NCBI GenBank assembly: GCA_963759085.1
Contig: CAVWXR010000011.1
Location: 91,707 to 155,706 of the forward strand
Direction of reading: 5' to 3'
Source: an uncultured Actinomycetes bacterium
GTDB taxonomy: Bacteria; Actinomycetota; Thermoleophilia; Gaiellales; Gaiellaceae
Length of the DNA: 64,000 bases
A program made the translations under genes and the position numbers. Shown in pieces: positions 8,419 to 64,000 of this stretch. The number at the start of each line of letters is the position of its first letter. The stretch's first letter is position 1. The notes below the pieces were generated by a model that worked only from the letters and a program-made list of their open reading frames with translations, had not been told where the DNA came from and made no database searches.

Positions 8419-9603
8419 GTGTACGGAACGCTGCGAGACGATCTACGAGCCAGGTTGGACGAGGTCCGCGAGGCGGGAACGTACAAGACCGAGCTCGTCA
8501 TGACGACGCCGCAGGGCGCCCACGTCCAGGTCGACGGCCGCGGCGAGCTGCTGAATCTCTGCGCGAACAACTACCTCGGCCTCGCCAGCCACCCCGCGAT
8601 CGTCGCGGCGGCGCACGAGGCGCTCGACCGCTGGGGCTACGGGATGGCGTCGGTCCGGTTCATCTGCGGGACGCAGGCGCTGCACCGCGAGCTCGAGGAG
8701 GCCCTCTCGCACTTCCTCGGCACCGACGACACGATCCTCTTCAGCTCGTGCTTCGACGCGAACGGCGGCCTGTTCGAGGCGCTGCTCGGCGAGGAGGACG
8801 CCGTCATCTCCGACCAGCTGAACCACGCGTCGATCATCGACGGCATCCGCCTCTGCAAGGCGCAGCGGTTGCGCTACGCCAACGGGGACATGGAGGAGCT
8901 GGAAGCGCGCCTGGAGGAGTCCGCCGGCGCGCGTTACCGGCTGATCGCGACCGACGGCGTCTTCTCGATGGACGGCTACCTGGCCCGGCTCGACCGGATC
9001 TGCGACCTGGCCGAGCGCCACGACGCGCTCGTGATGGTCGACGACTCGCATGCGGTCGGCGTCGTCGGCCCGGGCGGGCGCGGAACGCCCGAGCACCACG
9101 GGGTGATCGAGCGGGTGGACATCCTCACCGGCACGCTCGGCAAGGCGATCGGCGGTGCGAGCGGCGGCTACGTCTCCGGTCGGCGGGAGATCGTCGAGCT
9201 GCTGCGCCAGCGCGCCCGGCCGTATCTGTTCTCGAACAGCGTCGCGCCCCCGGTCGCCGCCGCGAGCCTGCGCGCTCTCGAGCTGATCGAGAGCTCGCAC
9301 GAGCTGCGCGACCGCCTCCGCGAGAACACCGCGCACTTCCGCTCGCGGATGACCGAGCTCGGCTTCGACATCCTTCCCGGTGAGCACCCGATCGTGCCGG
9401 TGATGATCGGCGACGAGCTCGAGGCGGCGCGGTTCTCCGAGCGGCTCGTCGCGCTCGGCGTCTACGCGGTGAGCTTCTCGTTTCCCGTCGTGCCACGAGG
9501 GTCGGCGCGGATCCGGACGCAGATGTCGGCTGCGCACTCCGTTGCCGACATCGACTTTGCGGTGGAGCGGTTTGTCGAGGCGCGTGAGTCACTGGCCGTC
9601 TGA
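8419..9603 (+). CDS. kbl: 2-amino-3-ketobutyrate CoA ligase (glycine C-acetyltransferase)
   Basis: GTG 8419 follows GGAGG (8410-8414), in the frame of the chimeric track ORF 7696-9603. [20 protein letters not shown], and the PLP lysine in [11 protein letters not shown]. Confidence 0.95.
9365..9451 (+). repeat. 87-bp segment of kbl that recurs perfectly at 10371-10457
   Basis: Base-by-base comparison gives 87/87 identity (TCGACATCCTTCCCGGTGAG...GAGCGGCTCGTCG). The flanking bases differ on both sides. Confidence 0.95.
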
Positions 9604-10325: not shown

Positions 10326-10483
10326 GAGGCGGCCGCAGCCCGCCGGAGCAGCACGGGGCGATCGAGCGGGTCGACATCCTTCCCGGTGAGCACCCGATCG
10401 TGCCGGTGATGATCGGCGACGAGCTCGAGGCGGCGCGGTTCTCCGAGCGGCTCGTCGAGGCGCGTGGGCACGGGGTCGCATGA
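10326..10483 (+). pseudogene. degraded second copy of the kbl 3' region (three kbl-derived pieces fused)
   Basis: Reads [51 protein letters not shown]. Piece 1 is diverged from kbl 9085-9125 ([18 protein letters not shown]). Piece 2 is identical to 9365-9451. Piece 3 resembles 9577-9590 (VEAR). The junctions sit at microhomologies (GACATCCT, GAGCGG.T.GTC). Confidence 0.8.
10371..10457 (+). repeat. second copy of the 87-bp kbl segment
   Basis: Identical to 9365-9451. Confidence 0.95.
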
Positions 10484-27650: not shown

Positions 27651-27860
27651 ACTTCGGCCAGGGAACCGGGCACGATCGGCTGACGGACGCGATCAGCTGC
27701 GCTGATCTTGACGAGCATCCGTCCCATCCCCGCGGCGAAGCCAAACAGCAACCCGATGGCGCTCAACTCTCGACGATCGAGGCAGCGACGAGTCTACTGC
27801 CGAACCCGTCGTCTCGGCGAGTTGTTCAACATCTGGCACAGATTTGTCACGCTTTCGTTG

Positions 27861-27885
27861 CGGTGTCTGACACCCGGACGTGGCC
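27861..27885. repeat. repeat-family copy: CGGTGTCTGACACCCGGACGTGGCC
   Basis: Direct repeat of 27631-27650, 234 bp downstream. The first 14 nt are identical to the centre of the pheT palindrome (read on the minus strand). Confidence 0.85.
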
Positions 27886-27912
27886 GCGACGGACGCCGCG
27901 TATCCTTCTGAC

Positions 27913-29827
27913 GTGAAGGTCATCCTTCCCGACGCAACGGAGCTGGAGCTACCCGATGGTGCAAGCGGGCTTGACGCCGCACGCGCGATCGGCCCGAAGC
28001 TCGCCGAGCAGGCGGTGCTCGTGCGCGCAAACGGCGAGACCCAGGATCTCCGGGCCCCGCTGCCCGACGGGGCGAAGCTTCAGATCCTGACCACCCGCGA
28101 CAAGCAGGATCCGGACGCGCTCTACGTCCTGCGCCACTCGAGCGCCCACCTGCTCGCCGAAGCGGTCCGCAGGCTCTACCCCGGCGTGAAGATCGCGATC
28201 GGCCCGCCGATCGAGCAGGGGTTCTACTACGACTTCGAGTTCCCGGAGCCGATCAGCGAAGGGGATCTCGAGCAGATCGAGGCCGAGGTCGAACGCGAGC
28301 TCGCCGAAGGCCGCGAGTGGACGCGCGAGGAGATCACAGCCGACGAGGCCCGGGAGCGGTTCGCAGCCGAAGGCGAGCCCTACAAGGTCGAGCTCGTCGA
28401 CACCGCTACGGGCGCCGATCTCTCTCTACACGCAGTCCCACAACGGCCGCAGCGACTTCACCGACCTCTGCCGCGGCCCGCACCTCCAGACCTCCGCTCC
28501 GATCAAAGCCTTCAAGCTGACGAGCCTCGCGGGTGCCTACTGGCGCGGCGACGAGCACAACAAGCAGCTGACCCGGATCTACGGCACCGCCTTCTACTCC
28601 CAGGATGACCTCGATGCGTACCTCTCGCGCCTCGAGGAGGCGAGGAAGCGCGACCACCGCAAGCTCGGCGTGCAGCTCGACCTCTTCCACCTCGAAGAGG
28701 TCTCGCCGGGATCGCCGTTCTGGCATCCGAAGGGGATGGCGATCTGGAACACGCTCGAGGATGTCAGGCGAGGGGAGAACGCGCGCCGCGGCTACTCGGA
28801 GGTCAAGACGCCGCTAATCTACGACAAGGCGCTCTGGGAGACCTCGGGCCACTGGGAGAAGTTCCGCGAGCACATGTTCGTGATCCCGGGCGAGGATCAC
28901 ACCTACAGCATCAAGCCGATGAACTGCCCGGGTCACATGGTGCTCTTCGGCTCGCGGATGCGCAGCTACCGCGAGCTCCCGTTGCGGTTCGCGGAGGCCG
29001 CGCCGCTCCACCGCAACGAGCTTGCCGGCGCGCTGCACGGGCTGACCCGCGTCCGCCACGTCACCCAGGACGACGCGCACCTCTTCTGCGCTCGCGAGCA
29101 GATCGAGGAGGAGATCTTCGGCTGCCTCGACTACGCCACGTTCCTCTATGACCTCTTCGGCCTGGAGGCCCACTTCGAGCTCTCGACCCGCCCCGAGAAC
29201 CGTCTCGGCACCGACGAGGAGTGGGACTTCACCGAGGGCGCGCTGCGCTCGGCGCTCGAGCGACGCGGGATCGCGTACACGGTGAACGAGGGCGACGGCG
29301 CCTTCTACGGCCCGAAGATCGACCTGCACATGACCGACTCCCTCGAACGCTCCTGGCAGATGGGGACGATCCAGCTCGATTCGCAGATGCCGCAGCGATT
29401 CGGGCTCACCTTTGTCGGCGCCGACAACACCGAGCACACGCCGTACGTGATCCACCGGGCGCTCTTTGGATCGCTCGAGCGTTTCATCGGGATCCTCATC
29501 GAGCACTATGGCGGCGCCTTCCCGTTCTGGCTCGCGCCGGTGCAGGTACGCGTGATCCCGGTGGGCGAGGGAAACCGCGACAATGCCCGTGCCCTGGCCG
29601 CCAAGCTCGCCGACTACCGGGTCGAAGTCGACGTCTCAGACGACACCGTCGGCAAGCGAATCCGTAATGCCGAGCTGGACAAGATCCCCTTCGTAGTCGT
29701 CTACGGGGCCAAGGAGAGCGACGACTCGCTCGCGATCCGCGAGCATGGCGGTGAACAAACCACCCGGTCGCTGCCCGAACTGCTCGAGATGCTTGCTACG
29801 CTCATTCCCTGGCAAGCAGGGGCATAG
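27913..29827 (+). CDS. thrS: threonine--tRNA ligase, one apparent frameshift near 28414-28418
   Basis: The N-terminal part from GTG 27913 (VKVILPDATELELPDG, HSSAHLL) runs in frame 1 until ...VELVDTATGA. The sequence continues in frame 2 (ISLYTQSHNGRSDFTDLCRGPHLQ...FWHPKGM...HRALFGSLERFIG) to 29827. Confidence 0.9.
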
Positions 29828-31096: not shown

Positions 31097-31774
31097 CTGA
31101 TCACCTCGCGTGACAACGACACGCTGAAGCTCGTTCGCAAGCTGCACGAGCGGCGCTGGCGGGACAAGCTCGGGCTGTTCGTCTGCGAGGGAGAGGATCT
31201 CGTCTCGGCGGCAACGGCCGAGCCCGTCGAGTTGCTCGTCGCCGGGGAGAACGTCGAGGCGAAGCTGCTGGCGGAGGTGTCGACCGCCGCGCACCCACCG
31301 CGCGTGATCGGCGTCTTTCGGCGCGCCGATCTGCCCGCTGCGGTCCCGCGCCCGGTGACGCTCGCACTCTGGCGCGTCGCCGATCCCGGGAACCTCGGCA
31401 CCCTGATCCGCACCGCGGACGCGTTCGGCGCAGCCGTCGCGCTATCGGAGGGGTGCGCCGACCCAACGGGCCCGAAGGCCCTCCGCGCGTCGGCCGGCTC
31501 GATCTGGCGCGTGCCACTGCTGCCGTTCCCTGCAAGTAACACTGTGTTACTTGCAGGGAAGCGCGTGGCGCTCGTCGCCGCCGGTGGGGAGCCAATTGGG
31601 CAGGTGGATCTCGGCGGCGAGGTCTGCTTCCTGCTCGGGGCCGAGCGCGAGGGGCTGCCGGCGGAGGTCGCGCGAGACGTGGACGCCTGGATTCCGATCG
31701 CCGGCGCCGAGTCGCTGAACGTCGGCGTCGCCGGCGCGATCGCGCTCTACGAGTGGCGACGGCAGAATCCCTAG
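31097..31774 (+). CDS. TrmH/SpoU family RNA 2'-O-methyltransferase
   Basis: The track ORF starts at TTG 31232. The same frame upstream reads LITSRDNDTLKLVRKLHERRWRDKLGLFVCEGEDLV, a typical family N-terminus. No ATG/GTG/TTG is available there, so CTG 31097 or an indel is implied. C-terminal LLGAEREGLP, IPIAGAESLNVGVAGAIALYE. Confidence 0.75.
   Translation: MITSRDNDTLKLVRKLHERRWRDKLGLFVCEGEDLVSAATAEPVELLVAGENVEAKLLAEVSTAAHPPRVIGVFRRADLPAAVPRPVTLALWRVADPGNLGTLIRTADAFGAAVALSEGCADPTGPKALRASAGSIWRVPLLPFPASNTVLLAGKRVALVAAGGEPIGQVDLGGEVCFLLGAEREGLPAEVARDVDAWIPIAGAESLNVGVAGAIALYEWRRQNP
31526..31560. repeat. perfect 35-bp AT-rich palindrome inside the trmH-like CDS
   Basis: TTCCCTGCAAGTAACAC-T-GTGTTACTTGCAGGGAA: 17-nt arms, one central base, no mismatch. 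Translated in frame as FPASNTVLLAG(K). Confidence 0.95.
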
Positions 31775-35140: not shown

Positions 35141-37420
35141 TTGAGAGTCCCCGTTTCCTGGCTGCGCGACTACGTCGCGATCGAGATGCCGCTCGAGGAG
35201 CTGGCGACGCGGCTCTCCATTGCCTCGGCCGAGGTCGAAGGGATCGAGCGGCGCGGCGTCGCCGACGAGGGCGGCAACCTCGAGTTGTTCCGGGTCGGCC
35301 GTGTGCTCGAGGCGATCAAGCACCCGGACGCCGACCGGCTCCAGCTGACGAAGGTCGACGTCGGCGAGGGCGAGCCGCGCTCGATCGTCTGCGGCGCCTG
35401 GAACTTCGGCGTCGGCGCGACGGTCGCGGTTGCCTTGCCGGGCGCGGTGCTGCCGAACGGGATCACGCTCGAGCAGCGCAAGGTGCGCGGCGAGCTCTCC
35501 GACGGGATGATCCTGGCCGAGGACGAGATCGCGCTCGGCTCAGATCACACGGGGATCATGGTGCTGCCGGAGACCGAGCCCGGGACGCCGCTCGCGGATG
35601 TCCTGCCGCTGGTCGACGACGTGCTGCTGATCGAGTCCACCGGCAACCGCCCGGACCTGCAATCGATCCACGGCATCGCCCGGGAAATCGCGACCCTCTA
35701 TGACCTGCCACTTTCGGACGTGTCCCGGTGTCAGACACCGGGACACGTCCCGAGCGGACAGGTGGCAATTCAGATCGACGACTTCGGCGGCTGCCCGCGC
35801 TACATCGGACGGCTGTTCGAGAACGTCGCGATCGAGCCGTCTCCTGTCTGGCTTCGGGCCCGGCTCTTCGCGGCCGGGATGCGGTCGATCTCGAACGTCG
35901 TCGACGTGACGAACTACGTGATGCTCGCCACCGGCAGTCCGCTGCACGCATTCGACTCGACGACGCTCGCGGGCGGCCGCATCATCGTCCGGCGCGCCGC
36001 CGAGGGGGAGAAGATCCGCACGCTCGACGGGGTCGAGCGCGAGCTGGTCGCGGACGACCTCGTGATCGCCGACGCCGAGCGTGCGATCGCGATCGCGGGG
36101 ATCATGGGCGGCGAGGAGACCGAGATCGGCGACGCCACGACGACCGTTCTGCTCGAAGCCGCGAACTTCGAGCCGCACACGATCTTCCGCAGCTCCGAGC
36201 GCCACCGGCTCCGCACCGAGAGCTCGGGCCGCTGGGAGAAAGGCGTCGATCCATATGCGGCGCAGACGGCGATCGACCTGGCGACGACGATGCTGCTCGA
36301 GCTCACCGGCGCCGCCTGGACGGCCGCCACAGACGTCAACGACGGCCTGCCGGAGCCGCCTGTCATCCGCTTTCGCCCGGAGCGCGCCGACGAGGTGATC
36401 GGTCTCGAAACGGCGCCCGACCGTCAATACGAGCTGCTCTCCAAGCTCGGCTTCGAGCACCAGGGCGATGCGGTGGCCGTCCCGACCTGGCGCGCCCGCG
36501 ACGTGACGCGCGAGATCGACGTCGTCGAAGAGGTCGCCCGCTTCCGCCTCGAGGACGTCCCGTTCACCCTCCCCGCCAGGCGCGAGATGTTCGGCACGCT
36601 CACCCGCGAGCAGCAGCTCCGGCGCCGCCTCGAGGACGCGCTCGTCGGGCTCGGCTTCGCGGAGACCTACACGCCGAGCCTCGTCCCGGACGACGAGACG
36701 CCGTGGAAGCTCCCTGAGCCGATCTCCGTCGAGCTGACCGCGCTGCGGACGAGGCTCATCCCGAGCCTTGTCGAGGCGGCACGCCGCAACGTCGATGCCG
36801 GCGCTCGCAACATCGCGCTCTTCGAGATCGCGCGCGTCTATCTCCCCGGGGGCGAGCTCCCGGACGAGCACGTGTCCGTGGCCGGGATCGCCCAGGGCGG
36901 CTTCCTGCACATCAAGGGCGTCGTCGAGGCGATCTTTGCTGCGCTGAAAGCCGAGCCCTGGTTCGAGCGCCTGCGGCAGGAGGAGCTCTTTCACCCGGGC
37001 AAGGCGGCCCTCACACCCGCGGGCATCCTCGGCGAGCTGCACCCGCGGCTGCTCGAAGGCGAGTGGGGAGCATTCGAGCTCGGCCTCACCGACCTCTTCT
37101 CCCAGTCGCGCGAGCCTGTGACGTACACCGACGTGATCACCTATCCGGCGATCAACCAGGACATCGCCGTCTCGGTTCCGGAGAATGTCGCCGCGGGAGA
37201 CCTCGTCGCCGCAGCACGCGAGGCGGCCGGCGCGGAGCTGCGCGAGATCCGCGTCTTCGACGTCTACCGCGGCGAGCAGGTCGGCGCGGGCCGCAAGTCG
37301 GTCGCGTTCTCCGTCGCGTACCAATCGGACGAGCGGACGCTCACCGAGGAGGACGCAATCCGCCTTCGCGAGTCGATCGTCGCCGCGCTGGCGGCCCGGT
37401 TCGGCGCAGAGCTGCGGTAG
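35141..37420 (+). CDS. pheT: phenylalanine--tRNA ligase beta subunit
   Basis: RVGRVLEAIKHPDADRLQLTKVDVG (tRNA-binding domain), CPRYIGR, and a C-terminal FDX-ACB-like end; 759 aa. Confidence 0.95.
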   Translation: MRVPVSWLRDYVAIEMPLEELATRLSIASAEVEGIERRGVADEGGNLELFRVGRVLEAIKHPDADRLQLTKVDVGEGEPRSIVCGAWNFGVGATVAVALPGAVLPNGITLEQRKVRGELSDGMILAEDEIALGSDHTGIMVLPETEPGTPLADVLPLVDDVLLIESTGNRPDLQSIHGIAREIATLYDLPLSDVSRCQTPGHVPSGQVAIQIDDFGGCPRYIGRLFENVAIEPSPVWLRARLFAAGMRSISNVVDVTNYVMLATGSPLHAFDSTTLAGGRIIVRRAAEGEKIRTLDGVERELVADDLVIADAERAIAIAGIMGGEETEIGDATTTVLLEAANFEPHTIFRSSERHRLRTESSGRWEKGVDPYAAQTAIDLATTMLLELTGAAWTAATDVNDGLPEPPVIRFRPERADEVIGLETAPDRQYELLSKLGFEHQGDAVAVPTWRARDVTREIDVVEEVARFRLEDVPFTLPARREMFGTLTREQQLRRRLEDALVGLGFAETYTPSLVPDDETPWKLPEPISVELTALRTRLIPSLVEAARRNVDAGARNIALFEIARVYLPGGELPDEHVSVAGIAQGGFLHIKGVVEAIFAALKAEPWFERLRQEELFHPGKAALTPAGILGELHPRLLEGEWGAFELGLTDLFSQSREPVTYTDVITYPAINQDIAVSVPENVAAGDLVAAAREAAGAELREIRVFDVYRGEQVGAGRKSVAFSVAYQSDERTLTEEDAIRLRESIVAALAARFGAELR
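35716..35750. repeat. perfect 35-bp palindrome inside pheT, member of the dispersed repeat family
   Basis: GGACGTGTCCCGGTGTC-A-GACACCGGGACACGTCC: 17-nt arms, one central base, no mismatch. Translated in frame as (S)DVSRCQTPGHVP(S). Confidence 0.95.
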
Positions 37421-43266: not shown

Positions 43267-43276
43267 TAACCCCGAA

Positions 43277-43313
43277 CCTCGTCCGGGACGACGTACCGTC
43301 ACAGAAGTGTGAC
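43277..43313. repeat. left REP-like inverted repeat flanking the RAYT gene
   Basis: CCTCGTCCGGGACGACGTACCGTCACAGAAGTGTGAC. The first 27 nt are identical to the reverse complement of the right copy. Contains a GTCACA-GAAG-TGTGAC hairpin. Confidence 0.85.
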
Positions 43314-43314
43314 G

Positions 43315-43872
43315 TCACGACCAGCGTGACCGAAGGCGTCCGTCTGCGACGAGCATGGCGATCCTCCCTCGCGCATCTTCTCCTCCGCCGACCGCATCCA
43401 ACAAGGGCGTCGAGTCAGCGAATGACAACGGCTTCCGGAGTCCGACGAGCCCGCCGTAGCTGCTCCACTCATAGCTCTCCGCAGAACCGAGATTGACTTC
43501 CTCGGGATTGAGCGCGATGTACCGACAGAGCTCGAGAAGATGACCTTCGGCTTCCACGAGGCTGGAAAAGTATGGTGCCCCGTAGACACGACCCTTCCGG
43601 CCATGCCGGCGATTGAACTCCCCTGCGTAGGCACGATTCAGTCGCTGCATCGCAGCCCCAAGCGACCCTTCCTCCACCGTGATCAGGAGGTGGTCGTGAG
43701 TGCCCATCAAACAGACGGCGTTGCAGACGAATTGGCCTTCGCGAACCCTTTGAGCGATCTGCCCGAGTCGGGTCTCGCAATCGAGCCCGTCCGCGAAGAG
43801 TGGCATTCCGGCGACTGCGTGGTTCGTCACGTGATAGAGGCCAGCGACTTGAACGCGGGGGCGGCGTGCCAT
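43315..43872 (-). CDS. REP-associated tyrosine transposase (Y1/HUH, IS200-like fold)
   Basis: 185 aa with YHVTNHAV, the HUH region CLMGTHDHLLI, FNRRHGRKGRVYG, and the catalytic-Tyr region LCRYIALNPEE. Confidence 0.85.
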   Translation of the reverse strand: MARRPRVQVAGLYHVTNHAVAGMPLFADGLDCETRLGQIAQRVREGQFVCNAVCLMGTHDHLLITVEEGSLGAAMQRLNRAYAGEFNRRHGRKGRVYGAPYFSSLVEAEGHLLELCRYIALNPEEVNLGSAESYEWSSYGGLVGLRKPLSFADSTPLLDAVGGGEDARGRIAMLVADGRLRSRWS

Positions 43873-43935: not shown

Positions 43936-43972
43936 GTCACACTCTTGTGACGGTACGTCGTCCCGGACGAGG
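43936..43972. repeat. right REP-like inverted repeat flanking the RAYT gene
   Basis: GTCACACTCTTGTGACGGTACGTCGTCCCGGACGAGG matches the reverse complement of 43277-43313 at 35/37. Confidence 0.85.
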
Positions 43973-43982
43973 TGCAGGTTGT

Positions 43983-44013
43983 GGGACGTACGTCGTCCGG
44001 AACGAGGTACAGG
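43983..44013. repeat. third, degenerate REP-like copy in tandem with the right repeat
   Basis: GGGACGTACGTCGTCCGGAACGAGGTACAGG compared with GACGGTACGTCGTCCCGGACGAGGTGCAGG. Confidence 0.6.
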
Positions 44014-50546: not shown

Positions 50547-51125
50547 ATGAGTGAGGCGGTTGTCGAAGGCGGAGCCGTTCCGACTCTGATCCCGCGCCGC
50601 CTGCTCCTCCTGCCCGCGGTCGCGCTGACACTGCTCCTCGTCGGGATCGCCTGGAACCGCGTGTGGCCGCTCGACTTCCTGCACGTCTTCTTCGGCGGGC
50701 TCTGGACCGGGGCGGACCTCTTCGCGGGCTTCCTGATCGGCCCGATCGCCCGCGGTCTCGAGCCGCCCGTCCGGCGGGCGTTCGTGCAGCGCTACATGCC
50801 GCGGCTGATGGTGCTGATGCCGACGCTCGCGATCGTCACCCTCGTCGCCGGCTGGCAGCTCGCGCGCCACACGGGCGTCCTGACCGAGGGGTATCCGCGC
50901 CACTGGTGGGTCGTCTCGTCGTTCGCGATCGTCGGCGTGATGGCGACGATCAACTTCGCGCTGCTCCTGCCCGCGAACCTCCAGGTGCTGACCGAGCTGC
51001 GGAAAGCGAGTCCGAACGCAGAGCTGATCGGGCGCCTGATGGCGCGCTACAGTACGATCGCGGCCGCGATCGGCTGCTTGCAGCTCGGCACGATCGTCGT
51101 CATGTCGAGGCTCGCGACCTTCTGA
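50547..51125 (+). CDS. integral membrane protein, paralog of 96-702
   Basis: 192 aa with four or more TM helices. Shared motifs with the first gene of the window. Confidence 0.75.
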   Translation: MSEAVVEGGAVPTLIPRRLLLLPAVALTLLLVGIAWNRVWPLDFLHVFFGGLWTGADLFAGFLIGPIARGLEPPVRRAFVQRYMPRLMVLMPTLAIVTLVAGWQLARHTGVLTEGYPRHWWVVSSFAIVGVMATINFALLLPANLQVLTELRKASPNAELIGRLMARYSTIAAAIGCLQLGTIVVMSRLATF

Positions 51126-57387: not shown

Positions 57388-57411
57388 CAATCCGCTCTTG
57401 CGGACGTGTCC
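57388..57411. repeat. 24-nt box CAATCCGCTCTTGCGGACGTGTCC upstream of vapBC (repeat-family member)
   Basis: Matches 63257-63280 at 22/24. The 3' 15 nt match the left flank/arm of the pheT palindrome at 14/15. Confidence 0.8.
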
Positions 57412-63256: not shown

Positions 63257-63280
63257 CAATCCGCTCTTTCGGACGCGTCC
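63257..63280. repeat. 24-nt box CAATCCGCTCTTTCGGACGCGTCC abutting the res ATG (repeat-family member)
   Basis: Matches 57388-57411 at 22/24. Contains the perfect 10-bp palindrome GGACGCGTCC. Confidence 0.8.
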
Positions 63281-64000
63281 ATGAGCTCGTTTGAAGTCGA
63301 GAATCCGATCCTCAGCTCGCCCTACGTCGAGCCGGCCGAGCACTGGCGGATCCATGAAGGCGAGACGGCACGGCGCGAGGAGGGGCGGCGCCGAGCGGGC
63401 TACTACTTCCGCGATCCGCGCGATCTCGACGAGACGGGGCTCGCGATCGGCAAGTGGCAAGAGCTCGAGCTCGTCAACCTGGTGCGCCAGCGCGTCGCTG
63501 CCTGGCGCGAAGCGGGGTATCCCGGCGCAAGCCGGACCACCCTCGACCTCCTGAAGCACTGGCGGCGCGAGGGCCGCTTCCGGCGGCTCTTCTTCGCCCA
63601 ACTCGAGGCCGCAGAGTCGATCATCTTTCTCGTCGAGGGGCGGTCTGATCTTCTCCAGGGCGTTGACGTTCCGCTCGAGAAGGTTCCCGATGACGTCGAT
63701 GCTTTTCGCCGCTACGCCTGCAAGATGGCGACCGGCGCGGGCAAGACGACGGTGATGGGGATGATCTGCGCCTGGAGCATCCTGAACAAGGTCACGTCCC
63801 GCGGCGACGCGCGCTTCTCCGACACCGTCCTCGTCGTCTGTCCGAACCTGACGATCCGCGGCCGTCTCACGGAGCTCGATCCGAACCGCGGCGAGGCGTC
63901 GGTCTACCGCACGCTCGACCTCGTCCCCGACGACCTGATGCCACAGCTTCGGCGTGGGCGCGTGCTCGTGAAGAACTGGCACGAGTTCGAGCGCAAGGGG
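63281..64000 (+). CDS. Type III restriction enzyme Res subunit (helicase-nuclease), 5' part only; continues beyond the window
   Basis: Read by hand; not in the track because no stop is reached. MSSFEVENPILSSPYVEPAEHWRIHEGE...RYACKMATGAGKTTVMG (helicase motif I)...VVCPNLTIRGRL. Confidence 0.85.
   Translation, partial: MSSFEVENPILSSPYVEPAEHWRIHEGETARREEGRRRAGYYFRDPRDLDETGLAIGKWQELELVNLVRQRVAAWREAGYPGASRTTLDLLKHWRREGRFRRLFFAQLEAAESIIFLVEGRSDLLQGVDVPLEKVPDDVDAFRRYACKMATGAGKTTVMGMICAWSILNKVTSRGDARFSDTVLVVCPNLTIRGRLTELDPNRGEASVYRTLDLVPDDLMPQLRRGRVLVKNWHEFERKG

Follow-up and report, generated by a model that had tools for sequence, protein, structure and literature searches.

Background

REP (repetitive extragenic palindromic) sequences are defined as extragenic, and their spread is thought to occur through transposition mediated by REP-associated tyrosine transposases (RAYTs). 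REP sequences together with RAYT transposases were reportedly described as REPtrons by Nunvar in 2010, and Higgins et al. are said to have proposed in 1988 that gene conversion accounts for the homogeneity of REP populations. Palindromic repeats lying in frame inside genes for functional proteins were likewise reportedly found by Ogata et al. in 2000, as the Rickettsia palindromic elements (RPEs); those of the RPE-1 type are of far greater length and bring in a peptide segment that orthologs do not have, and we know of no transposase associated with RPEs. Here we analyze a perfect palindrome that is read in frame within pheT, the essential gene for the beta subunit of phenylalanine--tRNA ligase, in a stretch of 64,000 nucleotides (the window) from an uncultured Actinomycetes bacterium of the Gaiellaceae (assembly GCA_963759085.1, contig CAVWXR010000011.1, positions 91,707 to 155,706). 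We propose that this palindrome is probably a long-resident copy, within a gene, of a Gaiellaceae REP family that is associated with RAYTs, and that the copy serves as a linker of PheT. It is similar to the RPEs in being an in-frame palindromic repeat in a gene for a functional protein, and differs from them in that it appears to replace a linker of equal length, whereas RPE-1 adds a segment.

In Pseudomonas fluorescens SBW25 REPs are almost entirely extragenic, with 14 of 1,067 REP 16-mers overlapping genes (Bertels & Rainey 2011, PMC3116915). The element in pheT is comparable to such REP/RAYT systems in that it belongs to a multi-copy family of short GC-rich palindromes, mostly extragenic and clustered, whose core flanks RAYT-like genes in metagenome-assembled genomes (MAGs). 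It departs from them in that one copy is translated inside an essential open reading frame (ORF), in the lack of a GTAG tag, in its host, which belongs to the Gaiellaceae (Actinomycetota), and in that adjacent copies mostly have the same central base and do not form the inverted doublets of REPINs. REPs with GTAG/CGTC tags have also been found wholly within ORFs of known proteins, in frame and in some cases in tRNA synthetase genes, where they are regarded as tolerated decorations; intragenic REPs and RPEs are described there as residue-adding inserts, with REP dimers encoding 20-30 aa, and the survey makes no mention of Actinobacteria (Di Nocera, De Gregorio & Rocco 2013, PMC3733652). The opinion in a first-pass annotation of this DNA that no equivalent is known in this kind of genome was therefore too strong, as the pheT copy shares with these intragenic REPs its position within an ORF, its in-frame reading and a tRNA synthetase gene as host. 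It differs from the described cases in that the copy adds no residues, that it has been fixed at one old position across a family-level radiation, that its arms covary, that its core has been swapped between REP types, and that the host is an actinomycetotan. A third comparison is offered by template-switch mutations, which generate perfect stems and one-step multibase ‘compensatory’ changes (Mönttinen & Löytynoja 2022, PMC8794818). The pheT palindrome shares with such quasipalindromes the perfect stem, the multibase paired changes and the unchanged length; the mechanism needs no dispersed family, whereas the pheT sequence also belongs to one.

A perfect palindrome between two domains of PheT

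The segment 35716-35750 reads GGACGTGTCCCGGTGTC-A-GACACCGGGACACGTCC, which confirms the 17+1+17 palindrome without mismatches seen in the first-pass annotation, and extends outward as an imperfect hairpin of 30+1+30 nt (35703-35763) with 80% complementarity. Perfect hairpin arms longer than 11 nt are found at only two places in the window, this palindrome and 31526-31560, and a search of the window with the arm, allowing up to three mismatches, recovered only the two arms of the palindrome itself. The 67-nt segment 35700-35766 is predicted to fold as RNA with -46.3 kcal/mol (z = -7.4), with none of 200 shuffles folding as well, and as DNA with -25.7 kcal/mol (z = -6.7). The element is thus a short palindromic unit able to form a hairpin, as are the units of about 20-60 bp that characterize REP/RAYT systems.

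The pheT ORF is intact (759 aa) and retains all five Pfam domains of the beta subunit, suggesting that the gene is functional and that the palindrome is read in frame, with the tRNA_bind domain (residues 50-148) on one side and the B3_4 domain (218-390) on the other. The translation of ORF 35141-37420 across it, ...LPLSDVSRCQTPGHVPSGQV...CPRYIGR (also given as ...LYDLPLSDVSRCQTPGHVPSGQVAIQIDDFGGCPRYIGR...), bears out the earlier observation of an in-frame read-through just before the CPRYIGR segment. No match to Rfam 15 at the gathering score was recovered anywhere in the window. An intrinsic terminator was ruled out because the hairpin is followed by CCGAGCGGACAGG with no T-run; furthermore, its position is mid-gene.

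Length of the linker in PheT homologs

The palindrome had previously been interpreted as an in-frame insertion of about 12 codons, for which an alignment of PheT orthologs was suggested as a check. In the alignment the 12 residues are not extra. The 120 best PheT relatives (74-89% identity) measure 742-768 aa, most of them 757-760 aa, against 759 aa for the query; the taxon names of the nearest ones place the organism in or near the Gaiellaceae. The segment encoded by the palindrome aligns residue for residue with the solved PheT of P. aeruginosa (4p71), and likewise with those of Staphylococcus haemolyticus (2rhs), with one extra residue, and E. coli (3pco), with one residue fewer. In deeper-branching relatives the linker reads ..LELAPPPGxDPExxGDEPV.., with no consistent hairpin among them, and spans 41 codons from ARE to CPRY as against 42 in the window; in some lineages its length varies (about three codons more in locus L005, and more in L006 and P0062; L numbers designate fetched loci). 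As the length matches both the solved structures and the REP-free relatives, the residues of the palindrome are those of an ordinary B2-B3 linker with nothing added, and the extra residues that mark REP inserts and RPEs relative to orthologs are not seen here. These alignments indicate that a REP-type palindrome replaces the normal interdomain linker of PheT instead of lengthening it.

A dispersed palindromic family and the membership of the pheT site

A scan of 185,579 species genomes with GGTGTCWGACACCSGGAC, which joins the core GGTGTCWGACACC to SGGAC, yielded at least 119 stretches. The matches listed, to which all counts of dispersed copies given here refer, come mostly from MAGs of Gaiellaceae, Thermoleophilia and ‘uncultured Actinomycetes’, and none of them is a pheT copy of the element. 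Several of the MAGs have a number of separate loci each (at least seven in MFD02134.bin.2.226, six in SMAG_U6220 and four in SMAG_U1225, these counts being lower bounds). As judged by ORF length and GC content at third codon positions (GC3) and not by annotation, 125 of 143 cores (about 87%) are non-coding, in loci with a GC content of at least 0.67, and about 8-9 of the remaining cores are real in-ORF copies; 45 adjacent pairs of cores lie within 300 nt. The GGTGTCWGACACC family is therefore mainly extragenic, and the earlier suggestion of a dispersed palindromic repeat family holds: its 18-mer core is multi-copy in Gaiellaceae MAGs, and the flanks of the pheT copy match it as well. Independently of the scan, we examined 560 kb of related DNA outside pheT against an order-4 Markov expectation, and observed 17 sites of GGGGTCWGACCCC (0.012 expected), 17 of GGGACWGTCCC (0.17 expected) and two of GGTGTCWGACACC (0.002 expected). 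These copies sit mostly just past stop codons, often in arrays.

Membership of the pheT site was assessed with a matrix built from the flanks of 107 dispersed copies, from which the 18 nt used for their selection were excluded, and scanned along both strands of the window. With 21.4 bits the pheT site ranks first of 128,000 positions (window mean -8.9, sd 5.0); the site upstream of thrS (Table 1) scores 15.1 bits and the best unrelated site 11.2. The pheT copy thus matches the family in both core and flanks.

Two of the in-ORF copies are found in one E2 acyltransferase gene (L115, 3462 and 3666), where they occupy the two interdomain linkers. In this protein the order is lipoyl domain (4-76), REP, E3_binding domain (109-144), REP and catalytic domain (165-367), with one GGTGTCWGACACC copy per linker, read as ..GPVQVSDTETGP.. 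and ..GPVRVSDTETGP.. respectively. Other copies lie at the junction of a glycosyltransferase and a membrane domain (L087 and L125) and in the N-terminal part of SufD (L204).

An iterated motif spread by substitution, in the manner of uptake sequences or HIP1, was rejected on account of the clustering of copies in intergenic arrays and their rarity in ORFs; a parS or operator-like motif was rejected on account of the clustering in extragenic arrays.

The 18-mer is also multi-copy in unrelated phyla, in Bordetella and Achromobacter (L107, L134, L159, L179, L183 and L189) and in Vicinamibacterales (L178, L180 and L200); in Bordetella a second GTGTCTGACAC adjoins it. This suggests either that the REP cores are related or that the REP-RAYT pair has spread horizontally.

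RAYT-like genes and their REPs

The core GGTGTCWGACACC lies on both sides of RAYT-like genes in L111, L140 and L191, and on one side in L101, L116 and L205. The RAYT homologs of these related MAGs are 30-37% identical to that of the window, and the association of a REP with the flanks of a RAYT gene is thus found for GGTGTCWGACACC in related MAGs and fails in the window. The product of the single RAYT-like gene of the window, 43315-43872, has an HDH and a YIALNP motif and scores below both curated cut-offs (21.4 bits against 23 for Pfam Y1_Tnp, 43 against 80 for NCBIfam REP_Tyr_transpos). Its ortholog in L081 is 81% identical and is likewise flanked by a REP of the ..GGTACGTCGTCCCGGACGAGG.. 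type. The first-pass annotation had pointed to a RAYT gene 7.6 kb from the palindrome: a RAYT-like gene is indeed present, but its connection to the palindrome is lost with the finding that its flanking REP is a different one.

This second REP type has its own relation to pheT. In L005 the pheT linker (6580) contains 18 nt identical to the RAYT-flank REP of the window, and an intergenic copy with the same TTCTTAAC flank is located 2.3 kb off on the same contig (4237). Because the L005 lineage has the RAYT-flank REP at this site, no fewer than two REP families have occupied the pheT linker, depending on the lineage.

Paired arms and reading frames among PheT orthologs

Linker DNA was extracted from 86 pheT loci, of which 33 share the 126-nt length of the window. 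Nearly all of the 33 are quasi-palindromes with one fixed center, the A of a Gln codon CAG (window 35733), and have 10 to 17 complementary pairs out of 17. The inner arms change in pairs, being GGTGTC/GACACC in the window and L085, GGGGAC/GTCCCC in L081, L084 and L008, GGGGTC/GACCCC in L037 and L040, and GGTGCC/GGCACC in L015. Where a Gly codon varies at its synonymous third base, the Ser/Thr/Ala codon two positions on varies with it at its first base (GGA-TCC, GGT-ACC, GGC-GCC, TGT-ACA). Across the 33 linkers 70.6% of cells are paired as against 64.5% in shuffles, none of 500 of which reach the observed value, a control that is blind to the difference between selection and copying from arm to arm and is inflated by the relatedness of the sequences. 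Sliding the 3' partner by 1-3 columns reduces pairing to at most 50.8%, and 13 of the 17 pairs show changes on both sides.

Furthermore, the palindrome is read in more than one frame. In L002 GACCGGGGACAGTCCCCGGTC is translated as TGDSPRS, and in L029, L064, L067 and L074 CCGGGGTCAGACCCCGG is translated as PGSDPG. The linker of L001 is an 18+0+18 perfect palindrome in which the same modules are arranged B-A-B, as against A-B-A in the window. L005 and many relatives have GTACGTCGTCCCGGACGACGTAC at this site, and other or unrelated sequences occupy it in L082, L007 and the basal group. Selection for the peptide, which could appeal to the recurrence of D[VM]SRGQSPGHV in many PheT orthologs, was rejected because the frame changes between lineages, and the comparison points to DNA or RNA, not peptide, as the conserved entity at the linker. 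The occurrence of one site common to many lineages also indicates that the REP-like element is old.

A second REP-like copy is present in pheT of one subclade directly after CPRYIGR (L054 958, L055 1197, L058 6693, L059 1495 and L071 1113). Its sequence, CTTTCGGGACGTGkCCGkGGGACAGTCCCCGG, turns FENVAIEPSPVW into FRDV[SA][GV]GQSPVW with no change in length, and in L058 this copy and an intergenic copy on the same contig have in common the string CGTGGCCG.GGGAC.GTCCC.

Exchange of the core and perfection of the arms

The pheT DNA of the window and of L081, its closest relative, is 86.6% identical. Flanking the core, 15 nt on its left and 14 nt on its right are the same in both, and the 15-nt core itself differs at six positions that make up three complementary pairs (CGGTGTCAGACACCG versus AGGGGACAGTCCCCA), where the average divergence of the gene would predict about two differences. 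Both versions are dispersed motifs in the clade. Judging from this comparison, the six differences look like one copying event and not six independent substitutions, either a conversion with another REP as donor or a mutation in one arm and subsequent template switching. The six symmetric differences are compatible with both routes, and a clear cluster on one arm is seen only at 31526-31560. As only 5 of the 143 dispersed copies have perfect arms of at least 12 nt (two of them, L093 and L120, reach 18 nt), the perfection of the pheT copy is exceptional and is not explained by membership alone; for the same reason the window copy would be a recently homogenized extreme of the family.

The other perfect 17+1+17 palindrome of the window, TTCCCTGCAAGTAACAC-T-GTGTTACTTGCAGGGAA at 31526-31560, is unrelated in sequence to that of pheT; a SpoU/TrmH methylase gene reads through it in frame (FPASNTVLLAGK) in one of its loops. 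Orthologs of this loop were located by tblastn: basal ones lack 5-8 residues at the point of the palindrome, and that of L083 has only 10+1+10, with the cluster GAGCCA to CCTGCA in the left arm of the window creating the complementarity. The change relative to L083 is template-switch-like in its signature. A related sequence, AAGTAACAGACTGTTACTTGCAAGGAC, is found at L111 7168 and L191 7240.

Origin and maintenance of the pheT copy

In light of the dispersed family, the match of the pheT site to its core and flanks, the fixed center with its paired arm changes, and the use of multiple frames, we posit the following history. The family unit would consist of the core GGTGTCWGACACC between GGACryGkCC half-sites, and its copy in pheT would encode the flexible linker between the N-terminal B1/B2 part of PheT and the B3/4 domain, with an 18-codon REP-like stretch in the place where deeper relatives have the REP-free linker ..APPPGxDPExxGDEP... 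It may have originated when a look-alike linker was overwritten, rather than by transposition into the linker. The REP-free linker CCGGGCACCGACCCCGAG resembles the REP core CCGGGGTCAGACCCCGG, and overwriting without a change in length would therefore be favored. The hairpin would then be kept, and in the window perfected, by non-reciprocal copying, either gene conversion from other REPs or intrastrand template switching, with no requirement for independent point mutations under selection. The pheT copy itself is perhaps best seen as a tolerated passenger with no role in phenylalanyl-tRNA synthetase. The location of in-ORF copies in flexible regions is explained by tolerance, and a role in pausing at domain boundaries has no direct support.

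Several observations weigh against this proposal. The linker shows no net change in length, contrary to what transposition predicts, and the only RAYT-like gene of the window is flanked by inverted copies of the different REP, ..GGTACGTCGTCCCGGACGAGG... The family is thin in the window, with two cores in 64 kb. Adjacent cores have the same central base, which marks orientation only crudely, in 33 of the 45 pairs and opposite ones in 12, whereas REPINs are inverted doublets. The family copies show no conserved tag of the GTAG or CGTC kind; CGTC is present in the window copy (CACGTCC), and the position is ATGTCC or GTGGCC in many others. The scarcity of long perfect arms among dispersed copies and the limits of the covariation control count on the same side. 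Finally, a crude profile along pheT of the 13-mers shared with non-pheT DNA, in which common GC-rich coding words dominate, does not single out the linker.

The alternative that survives best, though we hold it to be rather unlikely, is a home-grown palindrome: an old quasi-palindrome in a linker tolerant of mutation, perfected by intrastrand template switching, with no descent from or exchange with REPs and a resemblance due to convergence of GC-rich hairpins. The unchanged length of the linker, the presence of CCGGG...GACCCCG already in the REP-free linker, the perfect palindrome with another center in the same local sequence of L001, and the classical template-switch signature of 31526-31560 relative to L083 are all in keeping with it, as is the multibase ‘compensatory’ change described for the mechanism (PMC8794818). 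It leaves aside the 18-mer and flanks common to more than 100 copies outside pheT, for which a matrix of flanks alone ranks the pheT site first, and the switching of the pheT core between sequences each of which is a dispersed family. It also sits poorly with the 18-nt identity of L005 to the RAYT-flank REP and its TTCTTAAC-flanked copy 2.3 kb away. Template switching is more likely to be the perfecting step of a REP-derived linker than a rival to it.

We regard as unlikely that the hairpin is a selected cis-element, that is, a translational pause at a domain boundary, a signal for mRNA processing or stability, or a protein-binding site. Its fixed center and paired arm changes across orthologs of roughly 70-89% PheT identity, its high stability and the placement of other in-ORF copies at domain boundaries could be read this way; yet the same sequence is overwhelmingly extragenic and clustered, many PheT lineages have no hairpin or an unrelated sequence (L082, L007 and the basal group), there is neither a T-run after the hairpin nor an Rfam match in the window, and tolerance alone predicts placement in linkers. 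Comparably improbable is a combined scheme in which REP hairpins are retained at domain boundaries (PheT B2-B3, the E2 linkers and the glycosyltransferase-membrane junction) as stable mRNA hairpins that slow the ribosome between domains, gene conversion holding them uniform with the extragenic copies and overwriting look-alike coding sequence with no change in length.

Transposition of a mobile palindromic element into pheT, adding about 12 codons in the manner of RPEs and perhaps mediated by the RAYT 7.6 kb away, is very unlikely. In its favor are the in-frame, palindromic and REP-like character of the sequence, the occurrence of RAYT-like genes in the window and in relatives, and the variation in linker length in L005, L006 and P0062. 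It is contradicted by the comparison of lengths, in which neither solved PheTs nor REP-free relatives reveal added residues in the window; furthermore, the REP of the nearby RAYT-like gene is of another type, and the element is old and occupies one site in many lineages. Hardly any probability attaches to a by-product of peptide selection, for all the recurrence of its peptide, since the same DNA is read in other frames elsewhere and synonymous third-position changes go together with first-position changes that alter the amino acid, or to an assembly artefact, which the apparent frameshift in thrS might evoke, and which was rejected as the structure recurs in dozens of independent assemblies.

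Implications for REP biology

If the proposed REP descent is correct, the linker between two domains of an essential aminoacyl-tRNA synthetase subunit is encoded by a REP-type hairpin, which has been held at one site through a family-level radiation while being read in different frames by lineage and changing its core in symmetric blocks. Such a deep natural series might serve to separate transposition, gene conversion and template switching, the candidate mechanisms for the homogeneity of REP populations, a question that is said to date from Higgins et al. in 1988. The comparison also documents a REP-RAYT pair in the Gaiellaceae (Actinomycetota), and carries a warning that covariation of the ‘compensatory’ kind within a coding hairpin does not necessarily imply selection for an RNA structure.

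Other related sites and repeats in the window

Table 1. Coordinates of the pheT element, its host gene and REP-related features in the 64-kb window
Feature	Position	Strand	Remarks
pheT, phenylalanine--tRNA ligase beta subunit, essential host gene	35141..37420	+	759 aa; TIGR00472 637 bits
Whole REP-like element	35703..35763	+	30+1+30 imperfect hairpin; spans essentially the whole PheT B2-B3 interdomain linker (PLSDVSRCQTPGHVPSGQ)
Perfect palindrome	35716..35750	.	core GGTGTC-A-GACACC (35727-35739) between GGACGTGTCC and GGACACGTCC; peptide DVSRCQTPGHV
Second family member, oriented class	27846..27888	+	GTCACGCTTTCGTTGC-GGTGTCTGACACC-CGGACGTGGCC; non-coding, ~38 nt upstream of likely thrS start
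RAYT-like Y1/HUH transposase gene	43315..43872	-	185 aa; 7.6 kb from palindrome; different REP-RAYT pair
REP 3' of RAYT-like gene	43271..43313	.	CCTCGTCCGGGACGACGTACCGTCAC...; inverted repeat of 43936-43978, 43 nt, 91% complementary
REPs 5' of RAYT-like gene	43936..44010	.	two tandem copies ..GTACGTCGTCCSGRACGAGGT.CAGGTT; same type in pheT linker of L005 lineage
Box AATCCGCTCTTGCGGACGTGTCC	57390..57411	+	3' of aldo/keto reductase gene; resembles left flank of pheT element only; membership doubtful
Box AATCCGCTCTTTCGGACGCGTCC	63258..63280	+	abuts ATG at 63281; 21/23 identical to 57390 box; membership doubtful

The earlier match of the palindrome center CGGTGTCTGACACC to 27861-27874 proved to be exact, and the site is a true family member (Table 1). 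Its architecture, GTCACnCTTyCGTkrC-GGTGTCTGACACC-sGGACryGkCC, recurs in many MAG copies, and the element is also kept upstream of thrS in L083. The matches of CTTTCGGACGTGTCC to 57397-57411 and 63266-63280 at 14 of 15 positions are likewise real, but the family membership read into them is doubtful. With up to two mismatches CTTTCGGACGTGTCC has three matches against 0.26 expected, none of 100 shuffles reaching three; the boxes share the consensus AATCCGCTCTTkCGGACGyGTCC, each with a small TCCGC/GCGGA hairpin, and no further copy of them occurs in 206 fetched loci. Outside pheT neither the GGACGTGTCC module (five sites, 2.1 expected) nor CTTTCGGACG (one site, 0.97 expected) is enriched, and for this reason the 57397 and 63266 boxes are not counted as members of the family.

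The non-coding DNA upstream of pheS holds a different palindrome in each lineage: paired GGGACWGTCCC in L024 (2072), ATGTCCGGGGTCTGACCCCGGACAT in L031 (2102), paired GGGGTCWGACCCC in L076 (1442) and, perhaps at the same position, the RAYT-type REP in L005 (4237). The first three adjoin the same gene, as the downstream context GCGATCCAGAC is common to them. The thrS gene (about 27912-29827) is split by a frameshift near 28409-28413, with residues 1-167 of the L083 ThrRS aligning in one frame and residues 166-644 in a second; either the assembly has an indel error here or thrS is a pseudogene. Two longer repeats were also observed in the window, namely an exact 87-nt direct repeat (9365-9451 and 10371-10457) with copies 1,006 nt apart, and an 84-nt inverted repeat (471-554 and 50664-50747) whose arms are 82% complementary and 50 kb apart.

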